From a virus: 59,081 nt of DNA. Shown in pieces: positions 3,861-39,683 of the stretch (positions are counted from its first letter, which is position 1; every line of letters starts with the position of its first letter). Location: the IMG/VR virus record IMGVR_UViG_3300027652_000001, positions 1 through 59,081 of that record, one strand, 5' to 3'. Position numbers and translations under genes: made by a program. Below the pieces are notes generated by a model that saw only the letters and a list, made by a program, of their open reading frames with translations, searched no databases and was not told the DNA's origin.

Positions 3861-3864
3861 TGGA

Positions 3865-3885
3865 AATTATATACTTGACTACCTT
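3865..3885. repeat. Left arm of a perfect 21-bp inverted repeat (aattatatacttgactacctt). Contains a TATATAAT box on the minus strand just upstream of the gene at 3860.
   Basis: The reverse complement occurs exactly at 4621-4641. A partial third copy (gggaattatatactt) is at 11058-11072. Confidence 0.9.
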
Positions 3886-3900
3886 CGCAGGCGCTCCATT

Positions 3901-4612: not shown

Positions 4613-4641
4613 TTGTCAATAAGGTAGTCAAGTATATAATT
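4613..4641 (+). promoter_or_regulatory. Right arm of the 21-bp inverted repeat (4621-4641). On the plus strand it forms a sigma70-like promoter: TTGTCA, 16-nt spacer, TATAAT.
   Basis: TTGTCA at 4613-4618 and TATAAT at 4635-4640. It points into the antisense of gene 4648-4962. Confidence 0.4.
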
Positions 4642-19042: not shown

Positions 19043-19170
19043 GGTCTGAAGGCGGGCCGGGACCTTGACCTACCGTCCCGCCGTCTCAGATGTGTTGCTA
19101 TCCAGTTGCAAGCTGGACACCCACAGTTTATGCCACGTTCCCCATTGCGTGTCAAGCGTATAATTCATCC

Positions 19171-20832
19171 ATGAAGAGATGGCTCATCTTTTTGTTCTGG
19201 CTGTGCGCTGGCCCCGCGTTCGCGCAGACACTCCGCATCTCGGGCTGGTGCGAGCAGGGTGCCCAGCAGATCAACGTCGGCGGGGTGCTGTCTTCGCCCA
19301 CGACGCTGGTCCAGGCGAGCTACCCGGCGTGTAGGGTGACCGTGTTCCAGGCGGGAACCATCACCAAAGAAACTATCTACGCCGACAACATGATGACGCC
19401 ACTGGCGAACCCTTTCACCCTCACGCCGGGGAATGGTTACTGGTTCTTCTACCCGGCCATGGACACCGATCACGTCGACATCACGTTTGACCAGGGGGGA
19501 ATTCCCACCCCCTACACGCTGGGGGACGTGGCGGCGGCCGGCGGGTCGGGCGGAGGTGGCGGTGGAGGACCAGGAACTGTAACACGCGTAACATTTCCCA
19601 CAATTCCCGCTTGGCTGACCGCTTCCGTGGCGACAAACACCACGACGCCGGCAATTTCGATTGTTGTGGCGACCGGGCAGGCCTCGAACCAGGTCATCGG
19701 AACGTGCGGGTCGGCCACCACTTTCGGACCGTGCTCGCTGGGCGCCACGGATCTACCAGGCACGATCGTCTACAACAATCAGGCCAACACGTACTCGACG
19801 GGTGGCCAGAACTTCGCCGCGGCCAGCTTCCTGACGATCCCGAGCGGGCCAGGGTATGCTCCTACCAACAGCGGCATGATCGGCTACGACACGACCGCGA
19901 ACGCCTACCGGCTGGGGATCGCAGGGACGGATTTCATCATCGCGCCGCTCCTGAACGGCGCTTTCACGGTCGGCCACTGCCTCGAATATTCGACCACCCC
20001 GGCGCCCTCGATAATCGATGCTGGATTTCCGTGCAGCATGGGAGGCGGCGGAGGCGGAAGTCCGCTGACGGTCCAGGTGGGCGGGACTTCGACAGGGACG
20101 GCCAGCGCCACGCTCAACTTCAATTCGGGGAGCGGCATCAACCAGACGTGCTCGTACAACGCGGGCGCCTCGCGAAACGATTGCACGCCCGCCCTGGACA
20201 CCGCCTACGCCTTGTCGCGCGCCACAGACCAAAATGGAACGGATGCGACCTGTATCGACGCGTCAGGGAGCGGGACTTCGTACACCTGCTCGGTCACGCC
20301 CGGGCTCACCGGGTACACGCGCAACATGCGGATATATTTTGTTCCGCAGACGACGAGCGGAGCGGCGCCCACGCTGAACGTGACGGGAATCGGACCGCTG
20401 CCCCTCCAGTGGAATATCAACGGGACACTGACAAACGTGGCGGCTGGTCAACTCGTCGCCGCGCTGCCCTACATGCTCACCGCCTGGGGAAGTCCTCCGA
20501 CCGCGCTCGTGGTGCAGCCGACCGCCTACGCACCGAACACCGTGCAATCTTGTGGGACGACTATCGCCTGCTCGCACACTATTCTGAGCGTCCCGCAGAT
20601 CGTGACCGGTAGTGTGGCTCTGTCGAGCGGCACCCCGAGCACGGCGGCCATCACCGGGCTGTCTCCGGGGTTCACGTCGGCATCCACCTACCACTGCACG
20701 GTGAGCGATGCGACGACAGCGGCGAATGAGGTGACGGTTCTCGCGGCGGGGTACGTTTCAGGGACGGCGTTCACGATCACCGGGCCGAGCACCGTTACGG
20801 ACGTAGTGCACTATATTTGCGTGGGCAACTGA
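19171..20832 (+). CDS. Secreted tail-fibre-like protein (553 aa) with a Sec signal peptide and poly-Gly linkers
   Basis: MKRWLIFLFWLCAGPAFA|QT. TATAAT (19159-19164) lies 6 nt upstream of the ATG. A central domain (LSRATDQNGTD ... TLNVTGIGPLPL ... GSPPTALVVQ) is shared with 31244-31939. Confidence 0.75.
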   Translation: MKRWLIFLFWLCAGPAFAQTLRISGWCEQGAQQINVGGVLSSPTTLVQASYPACRVTVFQAGTITKETIYADNMMTPLANPFTLTPGNGYWFFYPAMDTDHVDITFDQGGIPTPYTLGDVAAAGGSGGGGGGGPGTVTRVTFPTIPAWLTASVATNTTTPAISIVVATGQASNQVIGTCGSATTFGPCSLGATDLPGTIVYNNQANTYSTGGQNFAAASFLTIPSGPGYAPTNSGMIGYDTTANAYRLGIAGTDFIIAPLLNGAFTVGHCLEYSTTPAPSIIDAGFPCSMGGGGGGSPLTVQVGGTSTGTASATLNFNSGSGINQTCSYNAGASRNDCTPALDTAYALSRATDQNGTDATCIDASGSGTSYTCSVTPGLTGYTRNMRIYFVPQTTSGAAPTLNVTGIGPLPLQWNINGTLTNVAAGQLVAALPYMLTAWGSPPTALVVQPTAYAPNTVQSCGTTIACSHTILSVPQIVTGSVALSSGTPSTAAITGLSPGFTSASTYHCTVSDATTAANEVTVLAAGYVSGTAFTITGPSTVTDVVHYICVGN

Positions 20833-22355: not shown

Positions 22356-22919
22356 ATGCCGGATATCTACGAGCTTGTCGAAGAAATAAACCGCAGAGTA
22401 AAGAGGCTCGAAGATCAGGAGCGGGATGACCAAAAAACGCTTGCAGCGATAGCCGCTGGAGTCAATCTGCTCCTTGCCGACATTCAGCCGCCACCCAGGG
22501 CCGCTAGGCTTACCGTAACCTGGGACCAAGGAGAACCATCTATGCCAGTAACTATTCAGCCCGGGGAATCCCGGGGAGGAACCGTTTCGCCACTCACCGC
22601 CGCTGGAGCCGCTTCGCCGGCCACCCTGAGCGGTCTCAGCGCGTCTTTCTCTGACCCGACGTTTACCGTCGTGCCTGACCCGGCCAGTCCGAACACCCGA
22701 ATCATTGTCACCGCTCCCACGAGCCTTCCGAGTGGGTTGACGACTGATGCCGCGACCGTGACATTCAGTGCAACCGCGACCGAGCCCGATGGTGTTACCA
22801 CCGAGTCGATCTCCGGCGTGGACACCGTGACCGTCAATGCGGTCGTTCCTCCTCCTCCGGCTCCGGCTGCGAGCTTGGGCATCGTCTGGGATCCGGCTCC
22901 GTCGCAGCGTAAGCGCTAA
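22356..22919 (+). CDS. Hypothetical protein (187 aa). N-terminal coiled segment and a Thr/Pro/Ala-rich beta-rich C-terminal part.
   Basis: ATG 22356 is preferred to the GTG at 22293. Confidence 0.7.
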   Translation: MPDIYELVEEINRRVKRLEDQERDDQKTLAAIAAGVNLLLADIQPPPRAARLTVTWDQGEPSMPVTIQPGESRGGTVSPLTAAGAASPATLSGLSASFSDPTFTVVPDPASPNTRIIVTAPTSLPSGLTTDAATVTFSATATEPDGVTTESISGVDTVTVNAVVPPPPAPAASLGIVWDPAPSQRKR

Positions 22920-23740
22920 TGGTCCGCTCGATCCCCCATCCGACTCTCGGAACCGTTTGTCTTGGCCGGAGGCATTCTACTGGCACGCCTCCGGCGCGCT
23001 TCGCTGATTTCATCCCGAAGAAACTGCCAGGCGTTCCGCTTGTGTTGGATCTCACACCCAAAGCGATGCCAGCGCTTGACCTGATTTATTTGAACGACAC
23101 GCTTGGGGACTGCGTTCCGGCTGGAAACCAGCATCTCGCGGGAGTGTGGACTGGGAACGCTTCGGGCGCCCCGACTATGTTCACCGACGCCCAGACGGAC
23201 GCCAACTACACCGGCATGTCGGGCGGCGAGTTCAATCCGTCCGACCCATCCACCGACCAAGGGTGCGAACCACTAGTAGCCATCGAGTGGTGGCGAACGA
23301 ACGGACTGCTGCCGGATGGTAGCCACAAGATCGCGGGCTATCTTTCGCTCGATCCGAACAACCGAGTGCAACTTCGCTCGGCGATCTGGCTGTTCGGCGG
23401 CGGCGTCGGATTCGCGCTGGATCTTCCCGATCCCTACATCAATCCGGCTCCCGCTGCCAGTGGATTCACGTGGGACGTTGCGGGCGAACCGGATCCTGAG
23501 AACGGTCACTGGATCGTTTCGGCTGGATACAACGCCAAAGGAGTGACCATCGCCACGTGGGGAATGCTCGGGACGTTCACCTATGAAGCCATCGGTGACT
23601 ACTGTCCCTTGAGCGCTGGCGGCGAATTGTACGCGATGATTTCTCAAGACGCGCTCAATGCCGCGATGGCGAAGGCCCCGAACGGTCTGGACTGGGCACA
23701 GATGAAAACGTATTTCGATGGAGCGGGAGGAAACGCGTGA
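22919..23740 (+). CDS. Papain-like (C1-like) cysteine peptidase
   Basis: Cys motif NDTLGDCVPAG. His/Trp region NGHWIVSAGYNAKGVTIATWG, which resembles the papain pattern GHAV..VGY....NSWG. Confidence 0.55.
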   Translation: MVRSIPHPTLGTVCLGRRHSTGTPPARFADFIPKKLPGVPLVLDLTPKAMPALDLIYLNDTLGDCVPAGNQHLAGVWTGNASGAPTMFTDAQTDANYTGMSGGEFNPSDPSTDQGCEPLVAIEWWRTNGLLPDGSHKIAGYLSLDPNNRVQLRSAIWLFGGGVGFALDLPDPYINPAPAASGFTWDVAGEPDPENGHWIVSAGYNAKGVTIATWGMLGTFTYEAIGDYCPLSAGGELYAMISQDALNAAMAKAPNGLDWAQMKTYFDGAGGNA

Positions 23741-24213
23741 TCAGAACTTTCTTAACATTCACACTCTTGGGCGCGCTGCTGTTTCAGGTTGGATGCAGCC
23801 AGAGCCAAGTCACAACCACGCTCGACCTGGTGGTGACCGCTGCCGACGCCGCAGTGAGCGTTCTTCAGAGTACCGGCACACTTCCACCAGGGACCGCATC
23901 CCTAATCACCGGCTACCTCGGCCAAGTGACCACCGGCGTGGAATTCGCTACGACCGAATTGGCGTCAACGGACTCAACCGCAGTCAAAGCGGCCAAGATC
24001 ACGCAGGAGTTCGCGATGATCGTTGTCCCGAATCTTCCGCCGGGGACCGGGGCCGCGATAGTGTCGGTGGTAGCTTCCGTAGCTCAGGCCGTGGCCAACT
24101 TCCTCTCCACGCTTCAAACCGTGGCCATGACTTCGGCAGACAAGCAAGTCCTTCCCAAAATCGCCCGGCACAACGCGATGGTCCGCGCCAAGCTGATTAT
24201 CGTCCACAAGTAA
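23737..24213 (+). CDS. Secreted helical protein, possible lipoprotein (158 aa)
   Basis: MIRTFLTFTLLGALLFQVGC|SQSQ is a signal peptide with an imperfect lipobox (Gln at position -3). Confidence 0.6.
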   Translation: MIRTFLTFTLLGALLFQVGCSQSQVTTTLDLVVTAADAAVSVLQSTGTLPPGTASLITGYLGQVTTGVEFATTELASTDSTAVKAAKITQEFAMIVVPNLPPGTGAAIVSVVASVAQAVANFLSTLQTVAMTSADKQVLPKIARHNAMVRAKLIIVHK

Positions 24214-24222
24214 CGTAGCGCG

Positions 24223-24228
24223 TATAAT
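24223..24228 (+). promoter_or_regulatory. TATAAT box 11 nt upstream of the giant gene ATG, in the same GCGTATAAT context as at 19156-19164
   Basis: gcgtataatgggtcttcagtATG. No SD is present. Confidence 0.35.
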
Positions 24229-24239
24229 GGGTCTTCAGT

Positions 24240-27200
24240 ATGAAGGCCCATTTGCTGCTTCTGGCGTTGCTCGCGATACCAGCGATTGCTGGTACCTATA
24301 CCGCCGCGACGTGCAATTACGCGGATGTAAACGCGGTAGTAAACGGGCCTACCCACGTCGCTGTCGCAGGCGACATAATCCAAATTCCCGCAGGTACCTG
24401 CACGTGGACGAACGGCATCGTAGTCACGGTTGGTATCACGATCAGCGGTAATGGCACTCCCAACAACACGCCCGGTACATTCGGCGCTGGTACGACCAAT
24501 ACCGTCCTTATCGACAACTACCCGGGTGGCGCAGTTATCAGTCTGCAAGGGATTCCGTTCGGGCAGACAAGCAGGATTTCGACTCTGGACATCGAGCCAC
24601 AGTCCGCTACGACAGCGCTAGTGTCGCCTCTCCAAGCAGCTGGTACCTGTACAAGTAGTGGATGTCCGAATCTGCGTATTGACAACATTGTTTTTGGCCT
24701 GACGACGCAGTGGACAGAGGCGGGGAACGGCGCACCTGCGGATTGGATGATACGCACCGACAATATCGTCGGCGTGATCGATCACACGAGTCTTCCGCCT
24801 GGCAGCAATGTTGCGTTGTTAAACGGCAACCTGTCCGCGTACTTAGGCGTAGGCGGATTCGGCGACAATTCTTGGGCGCAACCGGATTCGTTTGGCGGCG
24901 CAAACGTGATGTATGTCGAAAATAGCATAGTGAACGGAGGTGGCTTTAGCGACTGCGACAATAATCCAGCAGGCGGTGCGATTGGTGGCTGCCGAATCGC
25001 CGTCCGGTTCAATCAGTCCAGCGCCTCCAGTTCGAACGGGTTCGTTTACGTCCACGGACTTGATACGGATGGAAGGCCGCAAGGCGGCAGGCAGATTGAG
25101 GTTTATGGCAACACGCTTAACTGCACTAGCGGATCCTTTGGCGGTTGCCAAGCCATAACAGTGTACCGCTCGGGTACTGGATTCACCTTTGCCAACACAG
25201 CGGCTGTCTCTGGTGGAGGGTTCTACAATCAGATCGCTTCGATCTTAGTGTTCCGCACAGTATTTAACAATAGTTCGTTCGGGTCTTGCGGCGGGTCGAG
25301 CGCTTGGGATACGAATGATGGGACGGTTTACTACTCTGGTACTACCTCGACCAATGGCCAAACGCTCACAGATACGTCGAAGTCTTGGACTACAAACCAA
25401 TTCATTCCGAACGGCGCGCCATTCTCTGTCTACGACGTAACTCAGGGATGGTGGGCCGAAATCGCAAGTAATACCGGAAATACGCTTACCATCAACGGCA
25501 GTATTCCGGAGCAAAGCAATAGTTTTAACAGCGGCGATAGTTACCAGATCTTGCGAGCGACAGTGTGCGCAGATCAAGGGGGGCGCGGCCAAGGCAACTA
25601 TATTTCAGGTGGAACACCTACTCCAGCCAGCGCTTTGTCCCAAGCGCTCGATCCAATTTACGAATGGAATAATACTGTCGGCACGTTGTTTCATGGCAAC
25701 GTCGGCACCGACACTGGTCGCACGATTGCTAATCGTGACTGGTATACAGACGGGTCAAACGGCAGTCCGCAGGCAAACACGTCGCCGACGTCACCGTTCA
25801 ACGGCACATCAGGCGTAGGGTTCGGGACACTTGCGAATCGTCCAACTACATGCACGGTTGGCGTGGGGTATTTCGCGACAGATCAAGGCAACTGGAATCA
25901 ATCATCGAATGGATTCGGGCAGGGGCAGCTGTCGACTTGCGTCTCCACAAACACATGGGCGATTCACTACACACCCTACACGTACCCGCATCCATTGATC
26001 TCCGGCGGCGGCTCGCTACTACCACCGAGCTTTTCTCCGCCTGGGGCCTCTTATGGTCCTGCGCAGACCGTCACGATCTCGCTACCCTCCGGATCGACCG
26101 GATGCTTCACCGTCGATGGGAGTACTCCTACCGCCACCACGGCCGGCACTTGCTCTCATGGCACGACCTATTCCACTCCGATCACTGTGTCCACGAGTCT
26201 TACGGTGAAGGCCCTGGCGACGAAAGTAGGATTCACCAATTCGGCCGTTGCCAATGCGGTCTACGTCATCAACGGAGCGCTCGCAGCCCCGACGATCTCG
26301 CCGGCTACCGGAACGTACGCGGGTCCCCAAACCGTCACAATCAGCGGGCCGGCGGGGTCGACTGTCTGGTACAACTTCACCGGGACGTTCACCGGATGCA
26401 CGGCGAGCAGTTGCCCCACAGCGACGATGTACAGTTCTCCGGTGACTGTCGCAACATCGGAAACAATTCATGCTCTCGCAACCGAGGCTGGCTGGTCCAA
26501 TTCCGCGGTGGCGACCGCAGCGTACACGATCAATGGCGCTCTGCCCGCACCCACGTTCACGCCATCCGCTGGATCTTACGGGCCAACCCAGACCATCACC
26601 ATAAACCTGCCGGCCGGGGCGGCAGGATGCTATACGACGGACGGGAGCACGCCGGCGGCAGCTACCCCGGGCACCTGTTCACATGGGACGACCGTCTCAG
26701 GGACCGTCAGCGTCTCGTCCACACTCACCCTGAAGGCGATTTCAACCGAGGCAACGTTCCTCAATAGTTCGGTATCGAGCGCGCTGTACACGATCAACGG
26801 AGCGTTATCCACCCCGACCTTCTCGCCAAACGGAGGGTCGTTCGCGCTTCCTCAGACTGTCTCGATCACCTGTCCCGCAGGCGCGACGTGCTGGTACAAC
26901 TTTACGGGTACGTTCACCAGTTGCACGCCAACAGTCTGTACTGGGGCCACTATGTATTCGGCGCCGGTCGCGGTGTCCACGACGTCGACGCTTTTCTCTA
27001 TCGCCACGGAAGCAGGCTGGAGCAATTCCACAGTTGGAAGCGCCGCCTTCACGATCAACGGGACGCTGAGCGCTCCAACATTCTCCCCACCGGGCGCGGT
27101 CTATTCCAGCACGCAAACAGTGACCGTGAATTTGCCGATGGGATCGACAGGGTGCTACACCAGCGATGGAACTGCGCCGACCGCTACCACTCCAGGAACG

Positions 27201-30200
27201 TGTTCGAACGGAACAACCGTGTCTGGAACGGTCAGCGTTCCGGCCACGGTTACGCTCAAAGCGCTTGCTACGGAGGCTGCGTTCGCTAACTCGTCCGTAG
27301 CCAGCGCAACCTATACGATCATCAGTCCGAGCCCCTGTACGATCTCGAGCCCCACGGCCTCACAGTTGATTCAGGCTGCGGCGCCCCTGCAGTTGAATTC
27401 GTCGTGCTCCACGGCACCCACTGCGACCAAGGCGATTTACTTCGTGGATTACCAGCGGGTCGCTACGGGATATTCGAATCCATCCCTCGGCTCGACCATC
27501 AACGATTTCAGCACGGCCTGGTGCGGTCCGTTCTGCGCGACCTGGTGGCCGGGGCTCAATGGGGACGGATCGCACACGGTCTTCGCCCAGTTTTACCAGT
27601 TCGACACGCTACTCGCTACCACGCCCACCGTGAGTTTCACCGTCCGGCTCGAAGGGATGTCGAACCAGACGGTCAATGCGCTGCCGACTTCGGGCACCGG
27701 CGAATTCGGAGTCCTCTCCAACGGCCCGGGCGCGCACTTTATGCTCGACGGCCTAGACGGGTCGAATTCCAATTACTTCGGCGATCCGCTTTATCACTTC
27801 TGCGGGCTCGATGGCGGCACCGGGCAGGCGGGAGGCTGGAAGATCCCGGCGCTCAAAACCTCCTGCTGGCCGAACGGACAACACCTGATCGTGGCGGGAA
27901 CTTATCCGACCACCGGCGCGGCTGATCCATACGTGGTCACGCAGACGTTCACCAGCGCGAATGTGAGCGGCAACAACATCACGGTCACCAATCACTCGTT
28001 TCAGAACGGCAACGCAGCGGTCTGCTTAGGCGCATGCCCCGCGCCGATTGTGGCTGGTGCGCAGTTCTTCTGGACGACAAGCCCGACATGGGCGGCCGGC
28101 ACAGTCGCGGTCTCGATTGCCGGCGGTGTCGGGACGTTCACATGCTCATCTGCATGCGGCGTCACATCCGGCACAACAGTCAACATCGAGAACATCCAAT
28201 CGACGAACCAAGTGACCGGGCAACCGAACTGCGACGGGCAATACACAGCGGCATCAGGGTCGGGTACCTCGTTCACCGTGAACCTGCCCGCGGTTTGCAA
28301 CGGAGCATCCGGAGCCAAGAACCTGGAAGTAGACATTAACCCGATCTGGATCCAGTACGTGGACGGTAACACTGTGTCATTCTCCGCGACACCGGGCGGC
28401 TCGACCATACCGCTCACCAATACCGGCTCGGGCACCATGACGATCCAGTCGCGCACGCGGTCGCCTTACTACACAGTAGGCGGATTTGTGCCGGGGCAAA
28501 CCATGGGCGCGGATTACGTGCAGTACGGCGGCCCTGCGAATATTTATCAGCTAGTCACGTTCTCCAACGGCGCTGCGCCGATGCAGTTGATGCCTAAGTT
28601 CGGTGAGATGCATCTAGTAGCTGGAGCGAGTCCGACCGCGCTTTGTAATGCGGCAACGCTGATCGAGAATACGGATTTGACCTTTAGTGCGACCGCCTGC
28701 AACGCTTCGGGGCTTACCTGGACCGAAGTGGACGACGGTGGCGTGTCTGGCGTTTGCTCGGTGGATGCGTCAGGTAACGTGACGCCGATCATGGCCGGAT
28801 GGTGCAAGGTAAATGTAGCCTGCACAGCGTGCGCGGTGGGGGGTGTAACGCTTCCCACCGTGACCGTCTTTGTCCAAGTTCATGCGGGTTCTGTTACCTT
28901 CCCGCACTACACCCGATCCGGCGTGCTCGCGAACGCGTTCATGCCAGGGCAATCCTTCTATCCGATCAGCGCGTATCAGTTCAATCCCGCGCAAGCGCCG
29001 TCGTGGCTGGGACCTGCACTTATGCGGTCAAATGTGAACTCGCTGCCGATTGGGTTCACGTACCAAACCAATCTTACCAACCCGACCGCGACCAGCTGCC
29101 CGACGTGGCCGGATTCGACCATGAGCACCTGGGCGACATTCGCGCAGACCTGGAACCTGACGCTCGAATACGACATGTACCCGGTCTGGTTCCAGCAGGG
29201 ATCGAACGCCACATCGCTTGCAGCGATATTAAACAACACTGGGTATAATCGGCGTGCGTGTCTTGCAACGCTGGTATCGTATCTGATCGGTCTTGGGCGT
29301 GTCTGGAGGATCTATCCCGATGACGAAGTCTCAAATATTATCGGGAACTATCTTGAGCCTAATCCGCTGATCGGCCAAGGCAACTTCATCAGCGCGACAA
29401 CAGCAGGCGGCGTGGCCACGTTCAATGTGGCGAACATCACGTCGCTGGCCGCATTCAATCAAGCGACCGGGCAGGGAAATGCAATTCAAATCACAGGAGC
29501 GACAACAAATTCATGCCTGAACGGATGGTTTTTACTGACAACTGTGTCGTCTTCTACATTGACGGCACCGGCAGGCTCGTGTGGGAATGGTTTAACAATC
29601 AACGCGACGAGCGATCCCAGTGCATCCATGAACCTCCCCTTCCCCGGACTAGCCACCTCGGGGACGACGCTGCTGCAGAACGCCGGACCGCTCCCGGCGA
29701 ACCTAGGCCAGACGGAACAGACCTGGGACAGTAACCTGACGAGCATCGTGGTGTCAGGCTCGACCGGCACGATCCACTGGACCGGCCATGCTGTCACATC
29801 CGGAACCGCGATCCGGCTCTATTGCTTCGCTTGCGCACACACCAACCTGAACTTCATCGGCGTCCCAGTGGTCACGGATGCGAACACGCTCACGATCACC
29901 TGGACGGGAACAACTGGGGGGACGCCGCCCGCGGCTGGCACTTACAATAACTCAACTGACCCATCTGGTTTCTACCTGACGGTCGATCCCAATTGGGGCG
30001 CAAATCCGTTAGGGCAGTTTTACGCGCTGGTTAACGCGGTGCCGAATCATCCACTGAAAGCGTTCTCGATGCTCGGGACGCTGTTCTTCACGCCATCGAC
30101 GGTTTACAGCTACCAAGGCAACCCGGTGAACACGGACTCCTCGTGGCTCTACGTGCCCCAAGGACCGCCCAACTACACCGGCGCGGATATCTCGGTCAAC

Positions 30201-31157
30201 CAGGTCGCAAATTACAGTCAGTCCACTTCCGGGATCGCATCCCGCGCCTACCAGCTTGCCCCACGCTCGATGCTGTTCTACGGCGGCTACATCGGCGGCG
30301 GCAACATGGTCCAGTATCAGCGCTCGTTTTATTTCGACCCTTCAACAGACCGACCGGCGCAGAACGGGCTCAACTGGCGCCCGGAAACCACGCTCACTCA
30401 GATGATGTCGATGAAGACGATTGGAGTGCGTGGGCTCAGGCTCTACAACGGGTATCAGAACACATCCTCTGGCTACACTCAGCTTGGCCTCGGCTGGAAC
30501 GCGCCAGGCAACGGCGGATTCGGAACCGGCGCGGGCATGAGCCCCTACACGGCGCCTAAGACATGGGCCGCAATGGCACATACGAATGCGTTACTCGTGA
30601 TGCGCGAGGATACGGAATTGCAGCCGGAAGACAACAAACCGTACTTGGGGCCGTACTTCCAGACCGACGCGCACTTGAGCGCGACTTACGGCAATGAACG
30701 TACAGTTGTATGTGCATCTGAAATGCCGTATGGCGCAATTACGTTTCCGCTCAACCCGATTTCCGGCGGCTCGACGCTACTCTACACAAGCGATGGGTAT
30801 TCGACCCGCGTCTCAACCGTCGCAGGCAACCCGTCGTCGATTACGCAGGAATTCTGCCCGTCGCCCGGTTACACGTGGGTCTACGTCAGCCAGCCGCCCG
30901 GATACACTGCGCTCGATCAGGTCACATTTACACCGCCGAGCCCGTTGCCATTCAGTGCAGTCCACATGCTGATCCAGGTCGGATATTACCCGGACGGGAT
31001 GCAGGATGACCCGGTGTTCGACGCGACATCCGGCGTGACCGTGCCCATTGACCATCACAATATCAACGCCTGGTACCGGACGCTGTACTGTGATTCAAAC
31101 TTCCAACCATTGAGCATCAGCGACCCGACTTTAATTCCTTCACAGAATCTGCCGTGA
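24240..31157 (+). CDS. Giant secreted protein (2305 aa). Sec signal peptide, then a Gly/Asn/Thr-rich N-terminal region (possible beta-helix), five tandem CHB_HEX_C-like Ig-type repeats and a ~1280-aa C-terminal region. Candidate polysaccharide depolymerase or adhesin.
   Basis: MKAHLLLLALLAIPAIAG|TY. Single uninterrupted ORF. Repeats are read in the translation (see 26022-27323). Confidence 0.85.
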   Translation: MKAHLLLLALLAIPAIAGTYTAATCNYADVNAVVNGPTHVAVAGDIIQIPAGTCTWTNGIVVTVGITISGNGTPNNTPGTFGAGTTNTVLIDNYPGGAVISLQGIPFGQTSRISTLDIEPQSATTALVSPLQAAGTCTSSGCPNLRIDNIVFGLTTQWTEAGNGAPADWMIRTDNIVGVIDHTSLPPGSNVALLNGNLSAYLGVGGFGDNSWAQPDSFGGANVMYVENSIVNGGGFSDCDNNPAGGAIGGCRIAVRFNQSSASSSNGFVYVHGLDTDGRPQGGRQIEVYGNTLNCTSGSFGGCQAITVYRSGTGFTFANTAAVSGGGFYNQIASILVFRTVFNNSSFGSCGGSSAWDTNDGTVYYSGTTSTNGQTLTDTSKSWTTNQFIPNGAPFSVYDVTQGWWAEIASNTGNTLTINGSIPEQSNSFNSGDSYQILRATVCADQGGRGQGNYISGGTPTPASALSQALDPIYEWNNTVGTLFHGNVGTDTGRTIANRDWYTDGSNGSPQANTSPTSPFNGTSGVGFGTLANRPTTCTVGVGYFATDQGNWNQSSNGFGQGQLSTCVSTNTWAIHYTPYTYPHPLISGGGSLLPPSFSPPGASYGPAQTVTISLPSGSTGCFTVDGSTPTATTAGTCSHGTTYSTPITVSTSLTVKALATKVGFTNSAVANAVYVINGALAAPTISPATGTYAGPQTVTISGPAGSTVWYNFTGTFTGCTASSCPTATMYSSPVTVATSETIHALATEAGWSNSAVATAAYTINGALPAPTFTPSAGSYGPTQTITINLPAGAAGCYTTDGSTPAAATPGTCSHGTTVSGTVSVSSTLTLKAISTEATFLNSSVSSALYTINGALSTPTFSPNGGSFALPQTVSITCPAGATCWYNFTGTFTSCTPTVCTGATMYSAPVAVSTTSTLFSIATEAGWSNSTVGSAAFTINGTLSAPTFSPPGAVYSSTQTVTVNLPMGSTGCYTSDGTAPTATTPGTCSNGTTVSGTVSVPATVTLKALATEAAFANSSVASATYTIISPSPCTISSPTASQLIQAAAPLQLNSSCSTAPTATKAIYFVDYQRVATGYSNPSLGSTINDFSTAWCGPFCATWWPGLNGDGSHTVFAQFYQFDTLLATTPTVSFTVRLEGMSNQTVNALPTSGTGEFGVLSNGPGAHFMLDGLDGSNSNYFGDPLYHFCGLDGGTGQAGGWKIPALKTSCWPNGQHLIVAGTYPTTGAADPYVVTQTFTSANVSGNNITVTNHSFQNGNAAVCLGACPAPIVAGAQFFWTTSPTWAAGTVAVSIAGGVGTFTCSSACGVTSGTTVNIENIQSTNQVTGQPNCDGQYTAASGSGTSFTVNLPAVCNGASGAKNLEVDINPIWIQYVDGNTVSFSATPGGSTIPLTNTGSGTMTIQSRTRSPYYTVGGFVPGQTMGADYVQYGGPANIYQLVTFSNGAAPMQLMPKFGEMHLVAGASPTALCNAATLIENTDLTFSATACNASGLTWTEVDDGGVSGVCSVDASGNVTPIMAGWCKVNVACTACAVGGVTLPTVTVFVQVHAGSVTFPHYTRSGVLANAFMPGQSFYPISAYQFNPAQAPSWLGPALMRSNVNSLPIGFTYQTNLTNPTATSCPTWPDSTMSTWATFAQTWNLTLEYDMYPVWFQQGSNATSLAAILNNTGYNRRACLATLVSYLIGLGRVWRIYPDDEVSNIIGNYLEPNPLIGQGNFISATTAGGVATFNVANITSLAAFNQATGQGNAIQITGATTNSCLNGWFLLTTVSSSTLTAPAGSCGNGLTINATSDPSASMNLPFPGLATSGTTLLQNAGPLPANLGQTEQTWDSNLTSIVVSGSTGTIHWTGHAVTSGTAIRLYCFACAHTNLNFIGVPVVTDANTLTITWTGTTGGTPPAAGTYNNSTDPSGFYLTVDPNWGANPLGQFYALVNAVPNHPLKAFSMLGTLFFTPSTVYSYQGNPVNTDSSWLYVPQGPPNYTGADISVNQVANYSQSTSGIASRAYQLAPRSMLFYGGYIGGGNMVQYQRSFYFDPSTDRPAQNGLNWRPETTLTQMMSMKTIGVRGLRLYNGYQNTSSGYTQLGLGWNAPGNGGFGTGAGMSPYTAPKTWAAMAHTNALLVMREDTELQPEDNKPYLGPYFQTDAHLSATYGNERTVVCASEMPYGAITFPLNPISGGSTLLYTSDGYSTRVSTVAGNPSSITQEFCPSPGYTWVYVSQPPGYTALDQVTFTPPSPLPFSAVHMLIQVGYYPDGMQDDPVFDATSGVTVPIDHHNINAWYRTLYCDSNFQPLSISDPTLIPSQNLP
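26022..27323 (+). repeat. Five tandem ~87-aa coding repeats of two alternating subtypes (A-B-A-B-A)
   Basis: Type A contains GC[FY]T.DG[ST].P.A.T.GTCS.GTT. Type B contains WYNFTGTFT.CT...C..ATMYS.PV.V. Every unit ends in A.Y.ING or TII. Confidence 0.85.
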
Positions 31158-31243: not shown

Positions 31244-31939
31244 ATGAGACTCGCCTTACTTCTAGCCCCAATCGCGCTCCTGCACGCACAGATAGTGCCT
31301 CGCGCCGTTTGCACTCCCACACCAATCGTGCCTTACGTCCAAGTTGGCACCGCGACATGGCAGCAACTCGCCACCGCTACCGTCGCAGCCGTCACAACCG
31401 TTGTGAACCTCGGGCCGCAGCCCATCGGTGGCACTTGGGGATGGACTGGGCCGAATAACTTCGCATCCACCGCGCGGGAGCTTGACGGAATCGCTCTCAG
31501 CGTTGGCGCGAACAACTACATCGCGACGTACACCAACGCAAGCGGCTGCAAGAGCACGCAGACGTTCACGATCACAGTCACCGCGCCCCCGCCTACTGTC
31601 ACATGTGGCTCGGGCCTCGTCGCCTCTGGCGCGCTTTGTAATGTCGACACGTCGGTTATCCTGTCCCGCGCAACCGACGTGAATGGTTCCGATCACTGGC
31701 TCGCTGTCACTGGTGGCCCGGTGAACTGGACCGCCGAAACAGGCATCACCGTCCCAGCCTACGTGCAGGGCAACTGGTGGCTGGCGCAGTTCGCGAACGG
31801 CGCCGGAGCGACGATCAACCTTGGTCCGGGGATACTACCGCTGCTGGTCAAAGGGACTCCGGTCGTCGGCGGAGAATGCACCAACGGTTGCATCCTGCAG
31901 GCGATTGGATCGCCACCGACCGCGCTAGCGGTCCACTAG
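31244..31939 (+). CDS. Secreted tail-fibre-tip-like protein (231 aa)
   Basis: MRLALLLAPIALLHA|QIVP. The C-terminal domain (LSRATDVNGSD ... INLGPGILPL ... GSPPTALAVH) is homologous to part of 19171-20832. Confidence 0.75.
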   Translation: MRLALLLAPIALLHAQIVPRAVCTPTPIVPYVQVGTATWQQLATATVAAVTTVVNLGPQPIGGTWGWTGPNNFASTARELDGIALSVGANNYIATYTNASGCKSTQTFTITVTAPPPTVTCGSGLVASGALCNVDTSVILSRATDVNGSDHWLAVTGGPVNWTAETGITVPAYVQGNWWLAQFANGAGATINLGPGILPLLVKGTPVVGGECTNGCILQAIGSPPTALAVH

Positions 31940-32355
31940 CGCTTGTAGAAACGGAACGGGCCGCTCGTCATCGTAAGGGAATCCGGCGTGGCCCACGGCG
32001 GGCGTTTATCTTCCGGCTCGCTCTCGTAAAAGTTAGCGCCGTTCGTGGGATCGGTTCCCAGAGGGCACTCCGCAACCGCCTGGCAAGTCAGCCATGCTAT
32101 CCAGTCCGCTCCGGCTTGCTGTGGTGGCGTCGGTTCGGTCGGCCACGCCACGATGTTCGGGTCGCCCTTCGCGGTCATACTAGAGAATTGAAGGTGCTGC
32201 GCGATCACGCCGGAGATCGTTCGCGGCCAGCGGCGTTGTGCATCGTTCATACGGTTCAGGATCACCCACCAGATACAGGTGAGCGTGGCTGCGCTGCAAC
32301 TTCGGGCCTCGCGCCACAGACAGAGGGAAGCGAGCCACTTGTCGTATTCGCTCAT
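31936..32355 (-). CDS. SleB-like cell-wall hydrolase (Hydrolase_2 family), candidate endolysin
   Basis: CLWREARSCS ... WWVILNRMND ... ISGVIAQHLQFSS matches the SleB/CwlJ pattern as remembered. No signal peptide. Confidence 0.7.
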   Translation of the reverse strand: MSEYDKWLASLCLWREARSCSAATLTCIWWVILNRMNDAQRRWPRTISGVIAQHLQFSSMTAKGDPNIVAWPTEPTPPQQAGADWIAWLTCQAVAECPLGTDPTNGANFYESEPEDKRPPWATPDSLTMTSGPFRFYKR

Positions 32356-32705
32356 TTGTTCTGGGAATCGAGGATAGCCTGTTTCTTGGCCGCCAGTTCT
32401 TTCATCTGAGCGTCGAGCGCACGAGTCTCATCCGTCTCCGTCTTAGGCCAGATAAGCATGAGACTCGCCTTGATAGCTGCCTCTATGCTGCTAGGCACTA
32501 CGAGTGGAGAACTGCCCTGCCTCTTTTCCTGCGCCGCCATCCTCGTCAGCCGAGCGCTGGTCTGCGCCATATACACGTTGCTCGCGGTGTCGGTCGTCTG
32601 CATCGTAATTGCTGGGTGAGTCTTCCCTGCATCGTCGGTGTAGACGATCGAAATCTCAGCGGCGTTAGACGCGATCACGAAAAGAAAATAACAAAATAAT
32701 CTCAT
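32352..32705 (-). CDS. Secreted or membrane-anchored protein (117 aa) with a C-terminal coiled segment. Possible spanin-like lysis accessory protein.
   Basis: MRLFCYFLFVIASNA|AEIS. ATGA coupling to the endolysin gene. Confidence 0.6.
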   Translation of the reverse strand: MRLFCYFLFVIASNAAEISIVYTDDAGKTHPAITMQTTDTASNVYMAQTSARLTRMAAQEKRQGSSPLVVPSSIEAAIKASLMLIWPKTETDETRALDAQMKELAAKKQAILDSQNK

Positions 32706-33542
32706 TTAATTCATCCTTTGAATTGTCGAGTAGAAACTGTACTGCGGGCTTCCAATCACGCTCGTCAGCGCAACCGCGTAAGTGATCGCGGAACCATTCG
32801 ATTTCAGATACGTGCAGCCTTGTCCCTCCCCGAGCGCCGTCAATGTCACCGCTGTCAGCTTCGTCGGCGTATCGGTCTCAGATTGCGTCCCATCGTTCCA
32901 GCCAAACGTGACTCCTGCCGTACCAGCGCTGCCTGTCGTAGTGGTCACCAGATAGCCGCAGACGTTGTAGATTCCTGCCGCAGGAGTGGCAATTGTTGTC
33001 GTGGTGATTGCGGAAGTCTGGCCGGTCAGTTGGATGGCGGTGGCGTAGGGAACCTGGAATGGAGTGAACCCAAGAGATGCTTGCTTGGTTGCTAGTCCAG
33101 TGTCAACGTAAGACGTGGTCGCCAGTTTTGTGCTTCCATCGGCCTGAGACTGAGTAGTTGCGGTCGTACCATTTGGAAGTGCCGGGGTACCTGACAGACT
33201 CGCAGCGGTGCCGGAAGTATTGGCCGCGTTATTCGGTATGTCGGCCGATACTAGGGCGTGACAAGTGAACGTGTGTGAAGTTGTTGAGTACTGATAGACA
33301 CCACCGCTTGCAGTACAGTTAACCAAGCTAGTCAGAGCAAGAGTGCCATTCAAGATTTGATCTTGCGTACCCGTTGTGATCGGTGCTTGCTTCCCGTTGA
33401 ACGTCACCCAGTCAGCGCTGGCCAAACAACCTGTCTGAGATGCGGATGCAGCAGGGCACATGCTCATCGGAGAGTTAACCGGAGGCATGACCTGGGAGAA
33501 TAGGAGCATCGAACAAATGAGCACGTAAGCGAGTATTTTCAT
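32706..33542 (-). CDS. Tail-fibre-like protein (278 aa) with an N-terminal signal peptide
   Basis: MKILAYVLICSMLLFSQV. Carries the tail-fibre motifs SADWVTFNGKQ and DGSTKLATTSYVD. Confidence 0.75.
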   Translation of the reverse strand: MKILAYVLICSMLLFSQVMPPVNSPMSMCPAASASQTGCLASADWVTFNGKQAPITTGTQDQILNGTLALTSLVNCTASGGVYQYSTTSHTFTCHALVSADIPNNAANTSGTAASLSGTPALPNGTTATTQSQADGSTKLATTSYVDTGLATKQASLGFTPFQVPYATAIQLTGQTSAITTTTIATPAAGIYNVCGYLVTTTTGSAGTAGVTFGWNDGTQSETDTPTKLTAVTLTALGEGQGCTYLKSNGSAITYAVALTSVIGSPQYSFYSTIQRMN

Positions 33543-34618
33543 TAAAAGGATGCCCCAATATTATCGGCGATGGTCACGCCCGTTGCGCTCGTTCCACAGT
33601 AGGCGACGAGCTTTCCGGTACCGGAGTTGGTCCCTGCCTCCATACGAAGAGTGCATCCGCCAGTACCCGGCGCGGTTGCCGAGGCGGATGTTTTAGGAAA
33701 GATATTCGGAAGCGCCGTGGTCGCGCTTCCCATCTTGAGCGTTGCGAGATTCAATTGAGCCAAAGAACCACCATCGGCGACTGGAACTCCTTGATTAAGT
33801 TCTAAGATATTCACACCTAACGGAGAGAATCCATTCATGCTACCGCTAATACTCTGATTGAAAATGGTCAATTCCACATCGTCACCGAAATTACCCAAGT
33901 CAAAACCGCCTGTTAAGTTCCCCAGTGCATCAGCTACATTCCATCCAACTTCTCCACCATTTGTAGGTCCTGCCTCCACGTTAAAAAATGCCTCGTATAA
34001 ATACGTACCGTTCAAGTAAGCGAGATAATCTATGTCTGAAATTTGAGTAATTTGACTAATGTTAGTAGGAGCAGTGACGGTCCCACCTGACACATAAAAA
34101 CTACTTACAATGAACTCGGCGTTCAGGTCAGAATAGGCGGCAACCGTGTTCTGCTGGAGATTTCCGCTCGCGATATTTGCTGTAACACTCAGCGAATTCC
34201 CCGGTCCATCACAGCACGACAAATCCGGCTCCGCGAGTCCCAATTGAAGTCCAGTCATGCCGGTCACCGTAGGATTAGCCGCCGGGTACCATTGGAATGT
34301 ATCATCTTGATCCAGATTCCCCGTTGGCCCAACGAACAGCACATCGAATGGATCGCCTCCAGTGGGATCGCCGATCATTCCACCGCCGCCACCGCCTCCT
34401 CCAGAAGCTAGTAACGCATATGTGCCAGCGCCCCCGATGGTAGGCCCCTCGCAATCCCAAGCCGCGAGCGTGGGCACGACGATCTTGAGCGCCAGCGGCT
34501 GGGCAACCGTGCAGGCTCCACTCGGGGCGCTGGTCACGTACTGAATCTGGGGTAAGGGACTCGGCTGCGCGCACAGGCGCACGCCGCACAGTGCGAAAAA
34601 GAGCAGCAGCCGCTTCAT
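33542..34618 (-). CDS. Secreted protein (358 aa) with a poly-Gly linker
   Basis: MKRLLLFFALCGVRLCA|QPSP. Contains a G8 run. First gene of the leftward fibre and lysis operon. Confidence 0.75.
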   Translation of the reverse strand: MKRLLLFFALCGVRLCAQPSPLPQIQYVTSAPSGACTVAQPLALKIVVPTLAAWDCEGPTIGGAGTYALLASGGGGGGGGMIGDPTGGDPFDVLFVGPTGNLDQDDTFQWYPAANPTVTGMTGLQLGLAEPDLSCCDGPGNSLSVTANIASGNLQQNTVAAYSDLNAEFIVSSFYVSGGTVTAPTNISQITQISDIDYLAYLNGTYLYEAFFNVEAGPTNGGEVGWNVADALGNLTGGFDLGNFGDDVELTIFNQSISGSMNGFSPLGVNILELNQGVPVADGGSLAQLNLATLKMGSATTALPNIFPKTSASATAPGTGGCTLRMEAGTNSGTGKLVAYCGTSATGVTIADNIGASF

Positions 34619-34640: not shown

Positions 34641-34919
34641 ATGGCAACGCTTTATGGCAACATCGGAAGCATGGATTTCAATCGAGCAACCGAAGTCAGC
34701 CCCGACGTTGACAAGACCGTCGAAGACCTTTTCACTTACCACCCTTGGAGCGCCGAGCAGACGCAGAAAGGCGTGGCCGTCCGTGATGCCCTTGCAAAGG
34801 CAGTGCGAGTGATCATCGAGAACGTGCCTCCGTGTCCTGACCGCACCGTGGCAATCCGCAAACTGCGCGAAGCGCGGATGGATGCGAACTCAGCTATCAC
34901 CCACAGCGGCAAATACTAA
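34641..34919 (+). CDS. Small phage protein, candidate Acb2-like cyclic-oligonucleotide sponge (92 aa; alternative TTG start at 34635)
   Basis: Motif FTYHPW-x11-VRDA ... VPPCPDRTVAIRKLREARMDANSAI. The Tyr and the basic residue 15 positions later resemble the family pattern as remembered. This is inference only. Confidence 0.4.
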   Translation: MATLYGNIGSMDFNRATEVSPDVDKTVEDLFTYHPWSAEQTQKGVAVRDALAKAVRVIIENVPPCPDRTVAIRKLREARMDANSAITHSGKY

Positions 34920-36079: not shown

Positions 36080-36513
36080 GTTCACTCGACCGATTTTTAG
36101 ACAAGGTTTCTCCGGAACCGAACAGCGGGTGTTGGCTTTGGCTGGGCGGGGTTATTAAGGGTGGATACGCCAGAATTGGACGCGAATACGCGCACCGTTT
36201 CTCATATGAACATTTCCGTGGTCCGATCCCGGAAGGTCTACACATAGACCATCTGTGCAGAGTTCGATCTTGCGTGAACCCGTATCATCTTGAGCCGGTG
36301 ACTCAGCGGGAGAACAGCAGAAGAGGAATGGCCGGTAAGTACCCGCGAGGTGCCAATTGCCGCTTCGGCCATCCCCTGTCAGGAGTCAATTTATACTTAG
36401 CCCCGAAGACGGGTATTCGCAATTGCAAGGAGTGTCAGAGAGCGCGGGTCATCAAGTATCGAGCAAAAAGGAACTCGCTTTGTATTCTAGGCGATCAGTT
36501 GAAGCCGGTTTAA
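36076..36513 (+). CDS. HNH endonuclease (HNH_3-type)
   Basis: SGCWLWLGGVIKGGYARIG ... HIDHLCRVRSCVNPYHLEPVTQRENSRRG. Confidence 0.8.
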   Translation: MSSLDRFLDKVSPEPNSGCWLWLGGVIKGGYARIGREYAHRFSYEHFRGPIPEGLHIDHLCRVRSCVNPYHLEPVTQRENSRRGMAGKYPRGANCRFGHPLSGVNLYLAPKTGIRNCKECQRARVIKYRAKRNSLCILGDQLKPV

Positions 36514-36530
36514 AGATTGCCGACCAGAGC

Positions 36531-39441: not shown

Positions 39442-39683
39442 AATATCGCAAGAAACCAGTTGTGATTGATGCGATGTGTTGGGACGGAACCAACGTCTCG
39501 GATCTACGCCAGTTTTTAGGTGGGTTCTCCGAATGGAGCCTCGTCAACAGCGACCACGTCGAGATCAAGACGTTAGAGGGGAATCACCTCGCTAATCCTG
39601 GTGACTGGATCATCAAAGGCGTCAAGGGAGAGTTTTATCCCTGCAAGCCTGATATCTTCGCCGCTACATACGAGCGAACCTGA
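39438..39683 (+). CDS. PGDYG-domain phage protein (81 aa)
   Basis: KKPVVIDA ... ANPGDWIIKGVKGEFYPCKPDIFAATYE. Confidence 0.6.
   Translation: MKYRKKPVVIDAMCWDGTNVSDLRQFLGGFSEWSLVNSDHVEIKTLEGNHLANPGDWIIKGVKGEFYPCKPDIFAATYERT

Follow-up and report, generated by a model that had tools for sequence, protein, structure and literature searches.

The viral record IMGVR_UViG_3300027652_000001, analysed over its whole length of 59,081 nt (the window), represents a tailed phage of ~59 kb in which terminase, portal, major head protein and adaptor genes were found. We describe one gene of this phage, a single open reading frame (ORF) at 24240..31157 on the plus strand that runs from ATG to TGA and encodes a protein of 2305 amino acids, termed here the giant. 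According to the ORF listing and translation, the gene takes up 11.7% of the window, as a preliminary description of this DNA, made from its letters alone, had stated in reporting a single 6.9-kb ORF of about 12% of the genome. The giant is a fusion of two protein families that are found in host polysaccharide loci: a signal peptide is followed by an N-terminal module (N module), five CHB_HEX_C repeats and a 1277-residue C-terminal module (C module). The features of the gene, all on the plus strand, are as follows.

24240..24290 (+): Sec-type signal peptide, residues 1–17 (MKAHLLLLALLAIPAIA), assigned by inspection, with predicted cleavage before G18
24291..26018 (+): N module, residues 18–593, predicted right-handed parallel β-helix, putative polysaccharide lyase or hydrolase
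26019..26279 (+): repeat R1, subtype A, residues 594–680, CHB_HEX_C_1 at 42.5 bits
26280..26540 (+): repeat R2, subtype B (WYNFTGTFTGC...C), residues 681–767, CHB_HEX_C_1 at 30.3 bits
26541..26804 (+): repeat R3, subtype A, residues 768–855, CHB_HEX_C_1 at 29.9 bits
26805..27065 (+): repeat R4, subtype B, residues 856–942, CHB_HEX_C_1 at 22.8 bits, barely over the cut-off
27066..27323 (+): repeat R5, subtype A, residues 943–1028, CHB_HEX_C_1 at 28.2 bits
27324..28889 (+): first part of the C module (residues 1029–2305), residues 1029–~1550, β-rich with immunoglobulin (Ig)-like domains in the AlphaFold2 (AF2) model; weak Big_7 matches in 13 of 34 family members
28962..30614 (+): core of the C module, residues ~1575–2125, predicted (β/α)8-barrel-like glycoside-hydrolase fold (AF2, Foldseek)
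29382–29984 (+): β domains inserted in the core, residues ~1715–1915, from the AF2 model
29322..29327 (+): invariant Asp1695-Glu1696 in the motif YPDDE, candidate acid/base, invariant in alignments of 34 and of 38 sequences
30384..30386 (+): invariant Glu2049 in the motif WRPE, candidate second catalytic carboxylate, located after a low-confidence loop
30657..31136 (+): predicted C-terminal β-sandwich, residues ~2140–2299 (AF2, Foldseek), placed as it is after the barrel in glycoside hydrolase (GH) families GH30, GH39 and GH51
31155..31157 (+): stop codon TGA, from the ORF listing and translation

For each module, homology searches identified close relatives among free-standing proteins with signal peptides that are encoded in surface-polysaccharide biosynthesis and export clusters of Acidobacteriota (up to 71% identity for the N module and 67% for the C module), and the host group of both families is the class Terriglobia, including Bryobacterales. 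The search with residues 1–595 returned 404 homologues, the best of which are stand-alone proteins of 605–630 residues that are 50–71% identical to the giant, carry a signal peptide and lack Pfam domains; Terracidiphilus, Korobacteraceae and Acidiferrales are among the source names. The N-family gene was examined in four genomic contexts in Terriglobia polysaccharide clusters. In each of them it is flanked by glycosyltransferase genes and has a Wzy_C polymerase gene at a distance of one gene, and genes for heptose and nucleotide sugars are located nearby. The search with residues 1031–2305 returned 41 homologues without a Pfam domain, mostly stand-alone proteins of ~1300 residues that are 30–67% identical over the whole module. 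This C family is small: clustering of 1.84 billion proteins at 50% leaves only 72 representatives of it. It was located in 11 loci of GTDB species genomes (nine Bryobacterales/Bryobacteraceae, one Korobacteraceae and one Terriglobia). Its synteny reads Poly_export (Wza-like), NusG paralogue, a 986-residue Ig-repeat protein, GT87, a secreted collagen-like protein of ~430 residues and the C-family gene, beyond which a 492-residue protein, DUF218, a 525-residue protein, GT4 and sugar epimerases are encoded on the opposite strand. The complete order of N module, repeats and C module was found only in the giant's own cluster among the homologues retrieved; a search with the full-length protein gave 22 relatives, all of which align only to residues 1–~600 and/or the repeats.

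Two side observations concern the C-family loci. In a Bryobacterales metagenome-assembled genome (L089 5607-13822, CAWFZZ010000009.1), two C-family genes stand in tandem in one host locus, so the family duplicates within its chromosomal context. In addition, a 553-residue signal-peptide protein of the phage (19171-20832, +) has a ~138-residue domain in common with the collagen-like protein that is always encoded directly before the C-family gene in Bryobacterales. The shared domain spans residues 349–484 of the longest ORF at this place (19090-20832) and is 41–50% identical to its counterparts in L002 (8628-10004) and L003 (8718-10004); the same domain precedes a C-family gene in the viral contig L007 (4885-5217). 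Both members of a Bryobacterales gene pair thus have relatives in the phage, at separate places.

The point of fusion can be read from the stand-alone C proteins, in which the signal peptide is followed by [T/S]C[T/S][I/V]TSPT (TCTITSPT in L006, SCTVTSPT in L002). At the junction of the giant, SPSP is followed by CTISSPTASQLIQ, and the last repeat passes straight into ..SPSPCTISSPTASQLIQ, matching the mature starts of the stand-alone proteins; the fusion point is therefore the mature N-terminus of the C family. Judged from these sequences, the C module's own signal peptide is replaced by the N module and the Ig-like spacer. An unfused counterpart was found in the viral contig IMGVR_UViG_3300042090_003264 (L006), where an N-family gene encoding 1097 residues (1199-4492) is followed after 30 nt by a separate C-family gene encoding 1305 residues on the same strand, each with its own signal peptide. 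The two L006 products are 50% and 44–45% identical to the respective modules of the giant, and the contig shares nothing else with this phage within the stretch examined. The L006 N-family protein continues from its β-helix into Apiosidase-like (PF13204, E = 7e-23) and Collagen_bind_2 domains where the giant has its CHB_HEX_C repeats. A simple read-through fusion of an L006-like pair was rejected because the L006 N-family gene ends in these different domains, and the history of the fusion must have been more complex than the loss of a stop codon.

In terms of origin, the modules of the giant are 69–71% (N) and 66–67% (C) identical to chromosomal copies, compared with at most 65% and 44–45% to other viral copies. 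That both modules are closer to chromosomal than to viral relatives suggests that they were captured from host-like genomes. Neither megablast nor tblastn with each module detected similarity of the giant to any of 50,697 GenBank phage records, and neither a PHROG nor an NCBIfam match was obtained for its 2305 residues; for the ~1850 residues outside the repeats, searches against PHROGs, NCBIfam and the sequences of the PDB returned nothing. The GC content is 55.0% in the bin 24001-26000, which holds most of the N module, and 61.4% in the following bin (26001-28000), with the repeats and the beginning of the C module, a difference in keeping with separate origins for its two halves.

A chimeric join or a mis-assembly of the repeats could create a false single ORF, and the region does contain tandem repeats, while one database entry for the giant has only 1516 residues. 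The identical 2305-residue product is, however, carried by five contigs of 50–200 kb, and its cluster entry names three sources (JGI/IMG, Logan and ENA). The 1516-residue entry, from the separate run ERR1700728, differs from the giant at 6 residues (99.6% identity), crosses both the N-repeat and the repeat-C junctions and simply ends inside the ORF. Because the repeat units are only 52–64% identical in DNA and Tandem Repeats Finder returned nothing for the repeat region, the units being too diverged, collapse or expansion during assembly is unlikely. On these grounds an artefact of assembly or gene calling was rejected; its probability is, in our judgement, negligible.

The five repeats, each of 86–88 residues, occupy 26019-27323. 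When scanned singly, each exceeds the curated cut-off of 22 bits of the Pfam model CHB_HEX_C_1 (PF13290), and all five are thereby assigned to this Ig-like domain, to which the repeats had been likened in the preliminary description. The whole giant matches the model in 5 stretches with E = 7.7e-20, and the only Pfam matches in the protein are CHB_HEX_C_1 and the overlapping Fn3_assoc. Pairwise protein identities are 59–65% within subtype A (R1, R3 and R5), 62% within subtype B (R2 and R4) and 42–53% between the subtypes. Every value within a type exceeds every value between types, which bears out the original division of five ~87-residue repeats into two strictly alternating subtypes; the motifs given at the time, GC[FY]T.DG[ST].P...GTCS.GTT for type A and WYNFTGTFT.CT...C..ATMYS for type B, are both present as quoted. 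A search for these motifs in 185 retrieved proteins found single A-like copies in P0009, P0010 and P0014, with type B and the A-B alternation confined to the giant's own cluster.

The alternation had been attributed to duplication of a two-domain unit rather than of single domains, and the period and relatedness of the repeats support this. The DNA repeat families are spaced by exactly 525 nt, which corresponds to two units; R2R3 aligns to R4R5 without internal gaps, and the protein matches itself at an offset of 175 residues with 62% identity over 262 residues. The closest pairs at the DNA level are R2-R4 and R3-R5 (64.4% each), a pattern consistent with the duplication of a B-A unit, R1 being the older repeat.

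The N-terminus of the giant, MKAHLLLLALLAIPAIA followed by GTYTAATCN, was assessed by inspection against the features of a Sec signal cleaved by signal peptidase I, namely a basic n-region, an h-region of 10–15 hydrophobic residues and small residues at positions −3 and −1. By this hand rule it divides into MKAH, an uninterrupted hydrophobic LLLLALLAIP and AIA before G18, with an A-x-A site, in keeping with the signal peptide first noted for the ORF. Stand-alone N homologues show the same layout, with the consensus mature start GTYTAASCN, and a crude rule detected a signal-peptide-like start in 46 of 67 distinct N-family ORFs of viral contigs. The composition of the mature N module is 14.9% Gly, 9.0% Asn and 12.2% Thr over residues 18–593, so that its description as Gly/Asn/Thr-rich stands. 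The giant contains 51 cysteines (2.2%), about double the 0.8–1.6% of the virion proteins of the phage, and cysteine positions are conserved across both the N and the C families. Charged residues make up 6.6% of the giant, compared with 23–31% of cytoplasmic and 12.6–18% of core virion proteins of the same phage. The designation of the protein as secreted is thus supported by its signal peptide, by its signal-peptide-bearing cellular homologues and by its Cys-rich, low-charge composition.

The AF2 model of the N module, built from a 63-sequence alignment, has a mean predicted local distance difference test (pLDDT) score of 84.9 and a predicted template modelling (pTM) score of 0.88. The top 50 PDB matches of this model in Foldseek are all right-handed β-helix enzymes or tailspikes, among them alginate lyases of polysaccharide lyase (PL) family PL6, chondroitinase B, the HK620 tailspike, Depo32, K2-2 TSP, Kp32gp38, WceF (6tgf) and RbmB (9ozl). 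Although the scores of these matches are weak, we take a right-handed β-helix fold of the N module as likely. Comparably large N-domain proteins are encoded by two other viral contigs: L013 has a signal-peptide protein of ~2430 residues with an N domain, and L015 has a 1943-residue signal-peptide protein in which two N domains are combined with six CHB_HEX_C domains. This makes the giant part of a class that recurs but has not been described.

Other proteins combine the N domain with GH30 (PF02055; P0008 and P0015) or with an Apiosidase-like domain (PF13204; P0010 and gene 1 of L006), so that by domain annotation the N domain is a promiscuous partner of bona fide glycosidase domains. Some N homologues are named polygalacturonase or glucuronoarabinoxylan endo-xylanase by JGI. 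These catabolic-type partners and names would suit an auxiliary gene for carbon acquisition, whose exported product would degrade plant or microbial polysaccharide in the environment and so feed the infected host; for glycoside hydrolases of soil viruses such auxiliary genes are on record, one of them with experimental validation (PMC6172770). The closest relatives of the giant's modules (63–71% and 66–67%) are located in clusters for polysaccharide biosynthesis and export, not in catabolic loci, the gene adjoins lysis genes, and a gene of 6.9 kb would be expensive for a nutritional gain that lasts only briefly. We regard a nutritional role as improbable.

The C-terminal ~1280 residues had been described as lacking a recognised motif. 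Pfam agrees, yet the region emerges here as a second putative enzymatic module with free-standing homologues. The AF2 model of residues 1106–2305, built from 38 sequences, has a pLDDT of 81.2 and a pTM of 0.78 and shows, in order, β/Ig-like domains, an α/β region with eight candidate barrel strands that is broken by ~200 residues of β domains, and a β-sandwich. Foldseek returned 56 PDB matches at E <= 1e-3, led by the putative α-galactosidase 4nzj, the GH39 structure 5jvk, iduronidase 4obs, the GH39-like 8uwt, and members of GH51, GH30 and GH5. The barrel matches to GH39, GH51, GH30, GH5 and GH27 have E values of 5.6e-6 to 1e-4, many of them at probability 1.0, and matches of the model in BFVD include phage GH5 proteins. 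The C module is accordingly comparable to the (β/α)8 barrels of clan GH-A at the level of fold only.

Enzymes of clan GH-A have two catalytic Glu residues, located at the ends of strand 4 (in an N-E motif) and strand 7. In the C-module model, D1695-E1696 directly follows predicted barrel strand 4 (DSSP strand 583–587 of the model), and the invariant Y1971 lies at the end of predicted strand 6, an arrangement that resembles the clan GH-A signature. We propose D1695-E1696 and E2049 as a candidate catalytic pair on the basis of the model. Many Asp, Glu, Arg and His residues are invariant in both modules across 34–63 homologues; those of the N module include D181, H182, R256 and H272.

An exported surface protein without catalytic activity, acting as an adhesin, a mimic of host surface fibres or a superinfection-exclusion factor, would also fit part of these data. 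The C family always stands beside collagen-like and 986-residue Ig-repeat proteins and could therefore be part of a surface structure; the giant is rich in Ig-like domains, its catalytic residues are candidates only, and several other signal-peptide, fibre-like proteins are encoded nearby. The invariant polar and charged residues of both modules, the fold matches, which are nearly all to enzymes, and the resemblance of the Asp-Glu pair and Tyr to the clan GH-A signature argue against this notion, and we give it a low probability.

The position of the gene in the phage genome is relevant to its function. The giant lies in a plus-strand block of ~21.6–31.9 kb that starts at a divergent region with a helix-turn-helix gene and converges on a minus-strand lysis block holding the endolysin gene, and the structural genes begin at ~36.4 kb. 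The following genes serve as landmarks.

31936-32355 (−): Hydrolase_2 endolysin, by domain match
36357-38723: terminase, by PHROG match
39683-41728: portal, by PHROG match
44385-45545: major head protein, by PHROG match
49281-50627: SU10-type adaptor domain, by domain match

The only matches of the major head protein among the 50,697 phage records are Tunturiibacter phages Tunturi_1 and Tunturi_2 (29.6% identity), which are podoviruses of Acidobacteriota (PMC11924767). Three other viral contigs (L013, L015 and L049) have a Hydrolase_2 homologue no more than a few kb from an N-family gene, a proximity that we treat as a lead for a lysis-associated role and not as a statistic.

Taken together, sequence and models point, at about an even chance, to the giant as a Sec-exported, non-virion, two-module depolymerase directed against the surface polysaccharide of the host. 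The protein would be exported by Sec in the infected cell, its signal peptide would be cleaved after Ala17, and it would fold with disulfides in the periplasm and possibly be released further at lysis. The two putative catalytic modules would cut capsule, exopolysaccharide (EPS) or O-polysaccharide of the host in transit through the envelope or on the surface, with the CHB_HEX_C array serving as a spacer and/or a glycan-binding arm. The gain to the phage would be a cleared polysaccharide layer, so that lysis frees the progeny, together with avoidance of re-adsorption to debris and an opened surrounding matrix. Export is favoured by the canonical signal peptide retained from cellular homologues, by the start of the predicted β-helix at residue 18 with no virion-anchor domain, and by a gene position beside the lysis genes and away from the structural block. 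As would be expected of an exported glycanase, homologues are encoded in polysaccharide clusters (4/4 contexts for N and ~11 Acidobacteriota loci for C), and neither of the marks of a virion tailspike, an N-terminal attachment domain and a gene in the tail module, was found.

A number of observations weigh against this depolymerase reading. Both catalytic assignments rest on AlphaFold models and Foldseek. The β-helix matches of the N model are weak, with a best E value of 4.9e-3 and query-length-normalised TM scores of 0.12–0.28, and no Pfam match of β-helix type was found in the giant or in 63 N-family members at E <= 1. Searches of the N module gave no NCBIfam or PHROG match and, with the single sequence as with the family profile, no PDB sequence match beyond noise; by sequence the family could not be placed in the pectate-lyase-like superfamily (PL6, GH28, tailspikes). 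Of the earlier likening of the N-terminal part to β-helix carbohydrate-active proteins, the fold is thus supported, if weakly, by AF2 and Foldseek, and membership in a Pfam family is not (0/63 members). The C family presents a similar picture: no GH match was found by Pfam in 34 members at E <= 1, no NCBIfam or PHROG match was obtained, nor a PDB match beyond noise with single sequence or profile, and alignment of the family profile to the GH30-containing P0008 with hhalign gave nothing. By these sequence searches, the C family could be placed in no described GH family, and the only recurring Pfam match among the 34 C- and 63 N-family members is a weak Big_7, present in 13 of the 34 C members. 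The only invariant downstream Glu, E2049, follows a low-confidence loop instead of standing at the canonical place, the end of predicted strand 7. A Sec signal alone, moreover, takes a protein only as far as the periplasm of a diderm cell.

Evidence bearing on the location of the protein also counts on this side. In L012 and L053, which share capsid, adaptor and tail genes with this phage, an N-family gene lies inside the structural operon, between the adaptor gene and a homologue of the gene for a 1161-residue protein. In Tunturi_1 (L099, PP887698.1, 10371-23028), gp12 (1190 residues), gp13 (675 residues), gp14 (919 residues, annotated as "tail spike") and gp17 (1184 residues, annotated as "virion structural protein") all open with Sec-type signals, so that a signal-like N-terminus may be compatible with a virion location. 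Finally, the low charge of the giant is shared by the putative tail-fibre protein encoded at 54673-56799. Low charge was consequently dropped as a separator of exported from virion proteins, leaving the cysteine excess as the only compositional support for export, and a weak one.

Several of these observations also speak for a rival explanation in which the giant is a virion-attached tailspike or receptor-binding depolymerase on the short tail that digests capsule or O-antigen at adsorption, its N-terminus being unused for export. The structural-operon genes of L012 and L053, the similar N-termini of Tunturi_1 gp14 and gp17, the fibre-like low charge and the β-helix matches to HK620, Depo32, K2-2 TSP and Kp32gp38 would all be accommodated. 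The canonical A-x-A Sec signal is nevertheless kept from cellular homologues that are certainly not virion proteins, no anchor domain precedes the helix, the convergent lysis block stands between the gene and the structural block, and the cysteine content is about twice that of the virion proteins. The Tunturi annotations are, in addition, based on homology, and a text search of PMC11924767 found no mention of mass spectrometry or of signal peptides. We consider a virion location rather unlikely and favour the exported depolymerase.

The giant can be compared with several known systems. Phage tailspike and capsule depolymerases (HK620, Depo32, K2-2 TSP and Kp32gp38) resemble it in the right-handed β-helix predicted for the giant, in being encoded by phages and in the presumed substrate, a host-surface polysaccharide. 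The giant differs in its Sec signal in place of a virion anchor, its position outside the tail block, its second, TIM-barrel module and its lack of sequence similarity to any of the GenBank phage records. Among cellular enzymes, VexL is a periplasmic β-helix lyase from a capsule locus that, if located in the periplasm, breaks down Vi antigen while the polymer is being exported (PMC6003464), and WceF, with a Tat signal, is a tailspike-like β-helix hydrolase of the stewartan cluster (PMC7949094). Like VexL, WceF and RbmB, a Vibrio polysaccharide lyase, the N module is a predicted β-helix whose relatives occur in biosynthesis clusters and carry signal peptides. These three are cellular, single-module proteins with no detectable sequence relationship to the giant, whereas the giant is a phage gene product fused to a second module, and its signal is of the Sec type in contrast to the Tat signal of WceF.

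The clan GH-A glycosidases (GH39, GH30, GH51 and GH5) share with the C module, in fold-level matches, a barrel followed by a β-sandwich; the C module differs in the ~200 residues of β domains inside the barrel, the ~520 residues of Ig-like sequence before it and an acidic pair that is D-E, not N-E. PslG, a GH39 enzyme of the Pseudomonas psl operon, is a functional analogue in that it comes from an EPS locus and has a signal peptide. In the closest cultured lineage by capsid protein, Tunturi_1 gp17 is like the N-terminal half of the giant in its signal-peptide-like start, weak Beta_helix match and CHB_HEX_C_1 domain. It differs in its length of 1184 residues, its single CHB_HEX_C domain, the absence of a C module and the lack of detectable similarity to either module. 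Precedents for an enzyme directed at an extra envelope layer and for Sec export before lysis are given by LysB and by the Sec-exported endolysin Lys44 of phage fOg44, respectively (PMC6116005). The mycobacteriophage esterase LysB and the peptidoglycan enzyme Lys44 differ from the giant in chemistry and fold; the gene of the giant likewise adjoins a lysis block, and by this analogy a role in lysis is hypothesised.

Upstream of the giant, the following element was noted.

24220..24228 (+): GCGTATAAT box, 11 nt before the ATG of the giant, a possible −10 element with a very short leader

The gene had been credited with its own box at this distance and with no Shine-Dalgarno (SD) sequence, and both points hold: no SD-like motif was found ahead of the ATG, whereas 19 of 34 nearby genes have one. 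A promoter of its own is not established by these data. A σ70 promoter scan gave no −35 partner upstream of the giant, and the hexamer TATAAT, located at 24223-24228, occurs 10 times in the window against 5.2 expected. The window has two copies of the 9-mer GCGTATAAT where 0.19 would be expected. Both, at 19156 and 24220, precede by 6–11 nt the ATG of a signal-peptide gene that has no SD; the copy at 19156 lies 6 nt before the gene of the 553-residue protein. The 14-mer GTCAAGNNTATAAT has exact intergenic copies at 3866-3879 (−), 4627-4640 (+) and 19151-19164 (+), with five matches at up to two mismatches against 1.5 expected, and probably serves the phage as a promoter element of the extended −10 kind. 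The GCGTATAAT copy of the giant shares just the 3′ nine bases of GTCAAGNNTATAAT. A short-leader promoter at the giant is possible from these sequence features; because the upstream gene ends ~25 nt before the ATG, co-transcription is equally possible. A scan found no terminator after the giant, and a tRNA scan of the window found none.

Several neighbouring genes encode proteins with signal-peptide-like starts: a lipoprotein-like protein of 158 residues (23737-24213, +), and proteins of 231 (31244-31939, +), 117 (32352-32705, −), 278 (32706-33542, −) and 358 residues (33542-34618, −). The minus-strand set runs into the endolysin gene, and those of these neighbours that were scanned gave no Pfam or PHROG match. 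The 553-, 231-, 278- and 358-residue proteins contain 5.6–9.8% charged residues and 2.2–2.7% Cys, and the 278-residue protein is, as we take it by eye, tail-fibre-like (..DGSTKLATTSYVD..). Two genes upstream of the giant, a 273-residue protein (22919-23740, +) matches phrog_19005 and has no Pfam match; homologues lie ~2–5 kb from an N-family match in L013 (14763-15383), L014 (7755-8327), L017 (12706-13308) and L055 (12974-13528). By eye we presume in it a possible Cys/His pair (..DCVPAG.. and ..GHWIV..) reminiscent of papain-like peptidases. Just upstream of the packaging genes, a 92-residue protein (34641-34919, +) scores 27.8 bits (cut-off 27) for the Acb2/Tad1 hairpin domain PF24729 and is a possible anti-CBASS or anti-Thoeris nucleotide sponge. 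The 708-residue protein encoded at 54673-56799 (+), the putative tail-fibre protein referred to above, carries two He_PIG Ig domains at its C-terminus (E = 3e-22), has a very low charge and lacks a signal peptide, features that make it a better candidate for the receptor-binding fibre than the giant.

Known polysaccharide depolymerases of phages are nearly always virion tailspikes or soluble by-products released at lysis. Unusual in the giant is the combination of an export signal with two putative catalytic modules that have no Pfam, CAZy-type or PDB assignment, fused through an alternating CHB_HEX_C array. If the reading of the giant as an exported depolymerase is correct, polymer cleavage would be the first functional handle on two families without a Pfam or CAZy assignment, both of which are conserved in Acidobacteriota, a soil phylum that is abundant yet poorly understood. 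Read as a "Rosetta stone", the fusion and the unfused L006 pair would hint at a common structure on which both families act. Such a reading would also caution against automatically counting genes of this kind in soil viromes as auxiliary genes of carbon cycling, and would suggest that in slime-producing soil bacteria the phage attack on the envelope polysaccharide comes from within the cell, which would be testable in the cultured Tunturiibacter-Tunturi system. More broadly, and with considerable reserve, we suggest that phages of heavily encapsulated soil Acidobacteriota may routinely export large depolymerases by Sec, instead of or besides virion-borne ones, as an extra lysis and release function directed at envelope polysaccharide and built by capturing and fusing glycanases of host loci. 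If so, the giant would be the most elaborate case, and Tunturi_1 gp12–gp17 and the signal-peptide N-family genes of IMG/VR would represent the same strategy.

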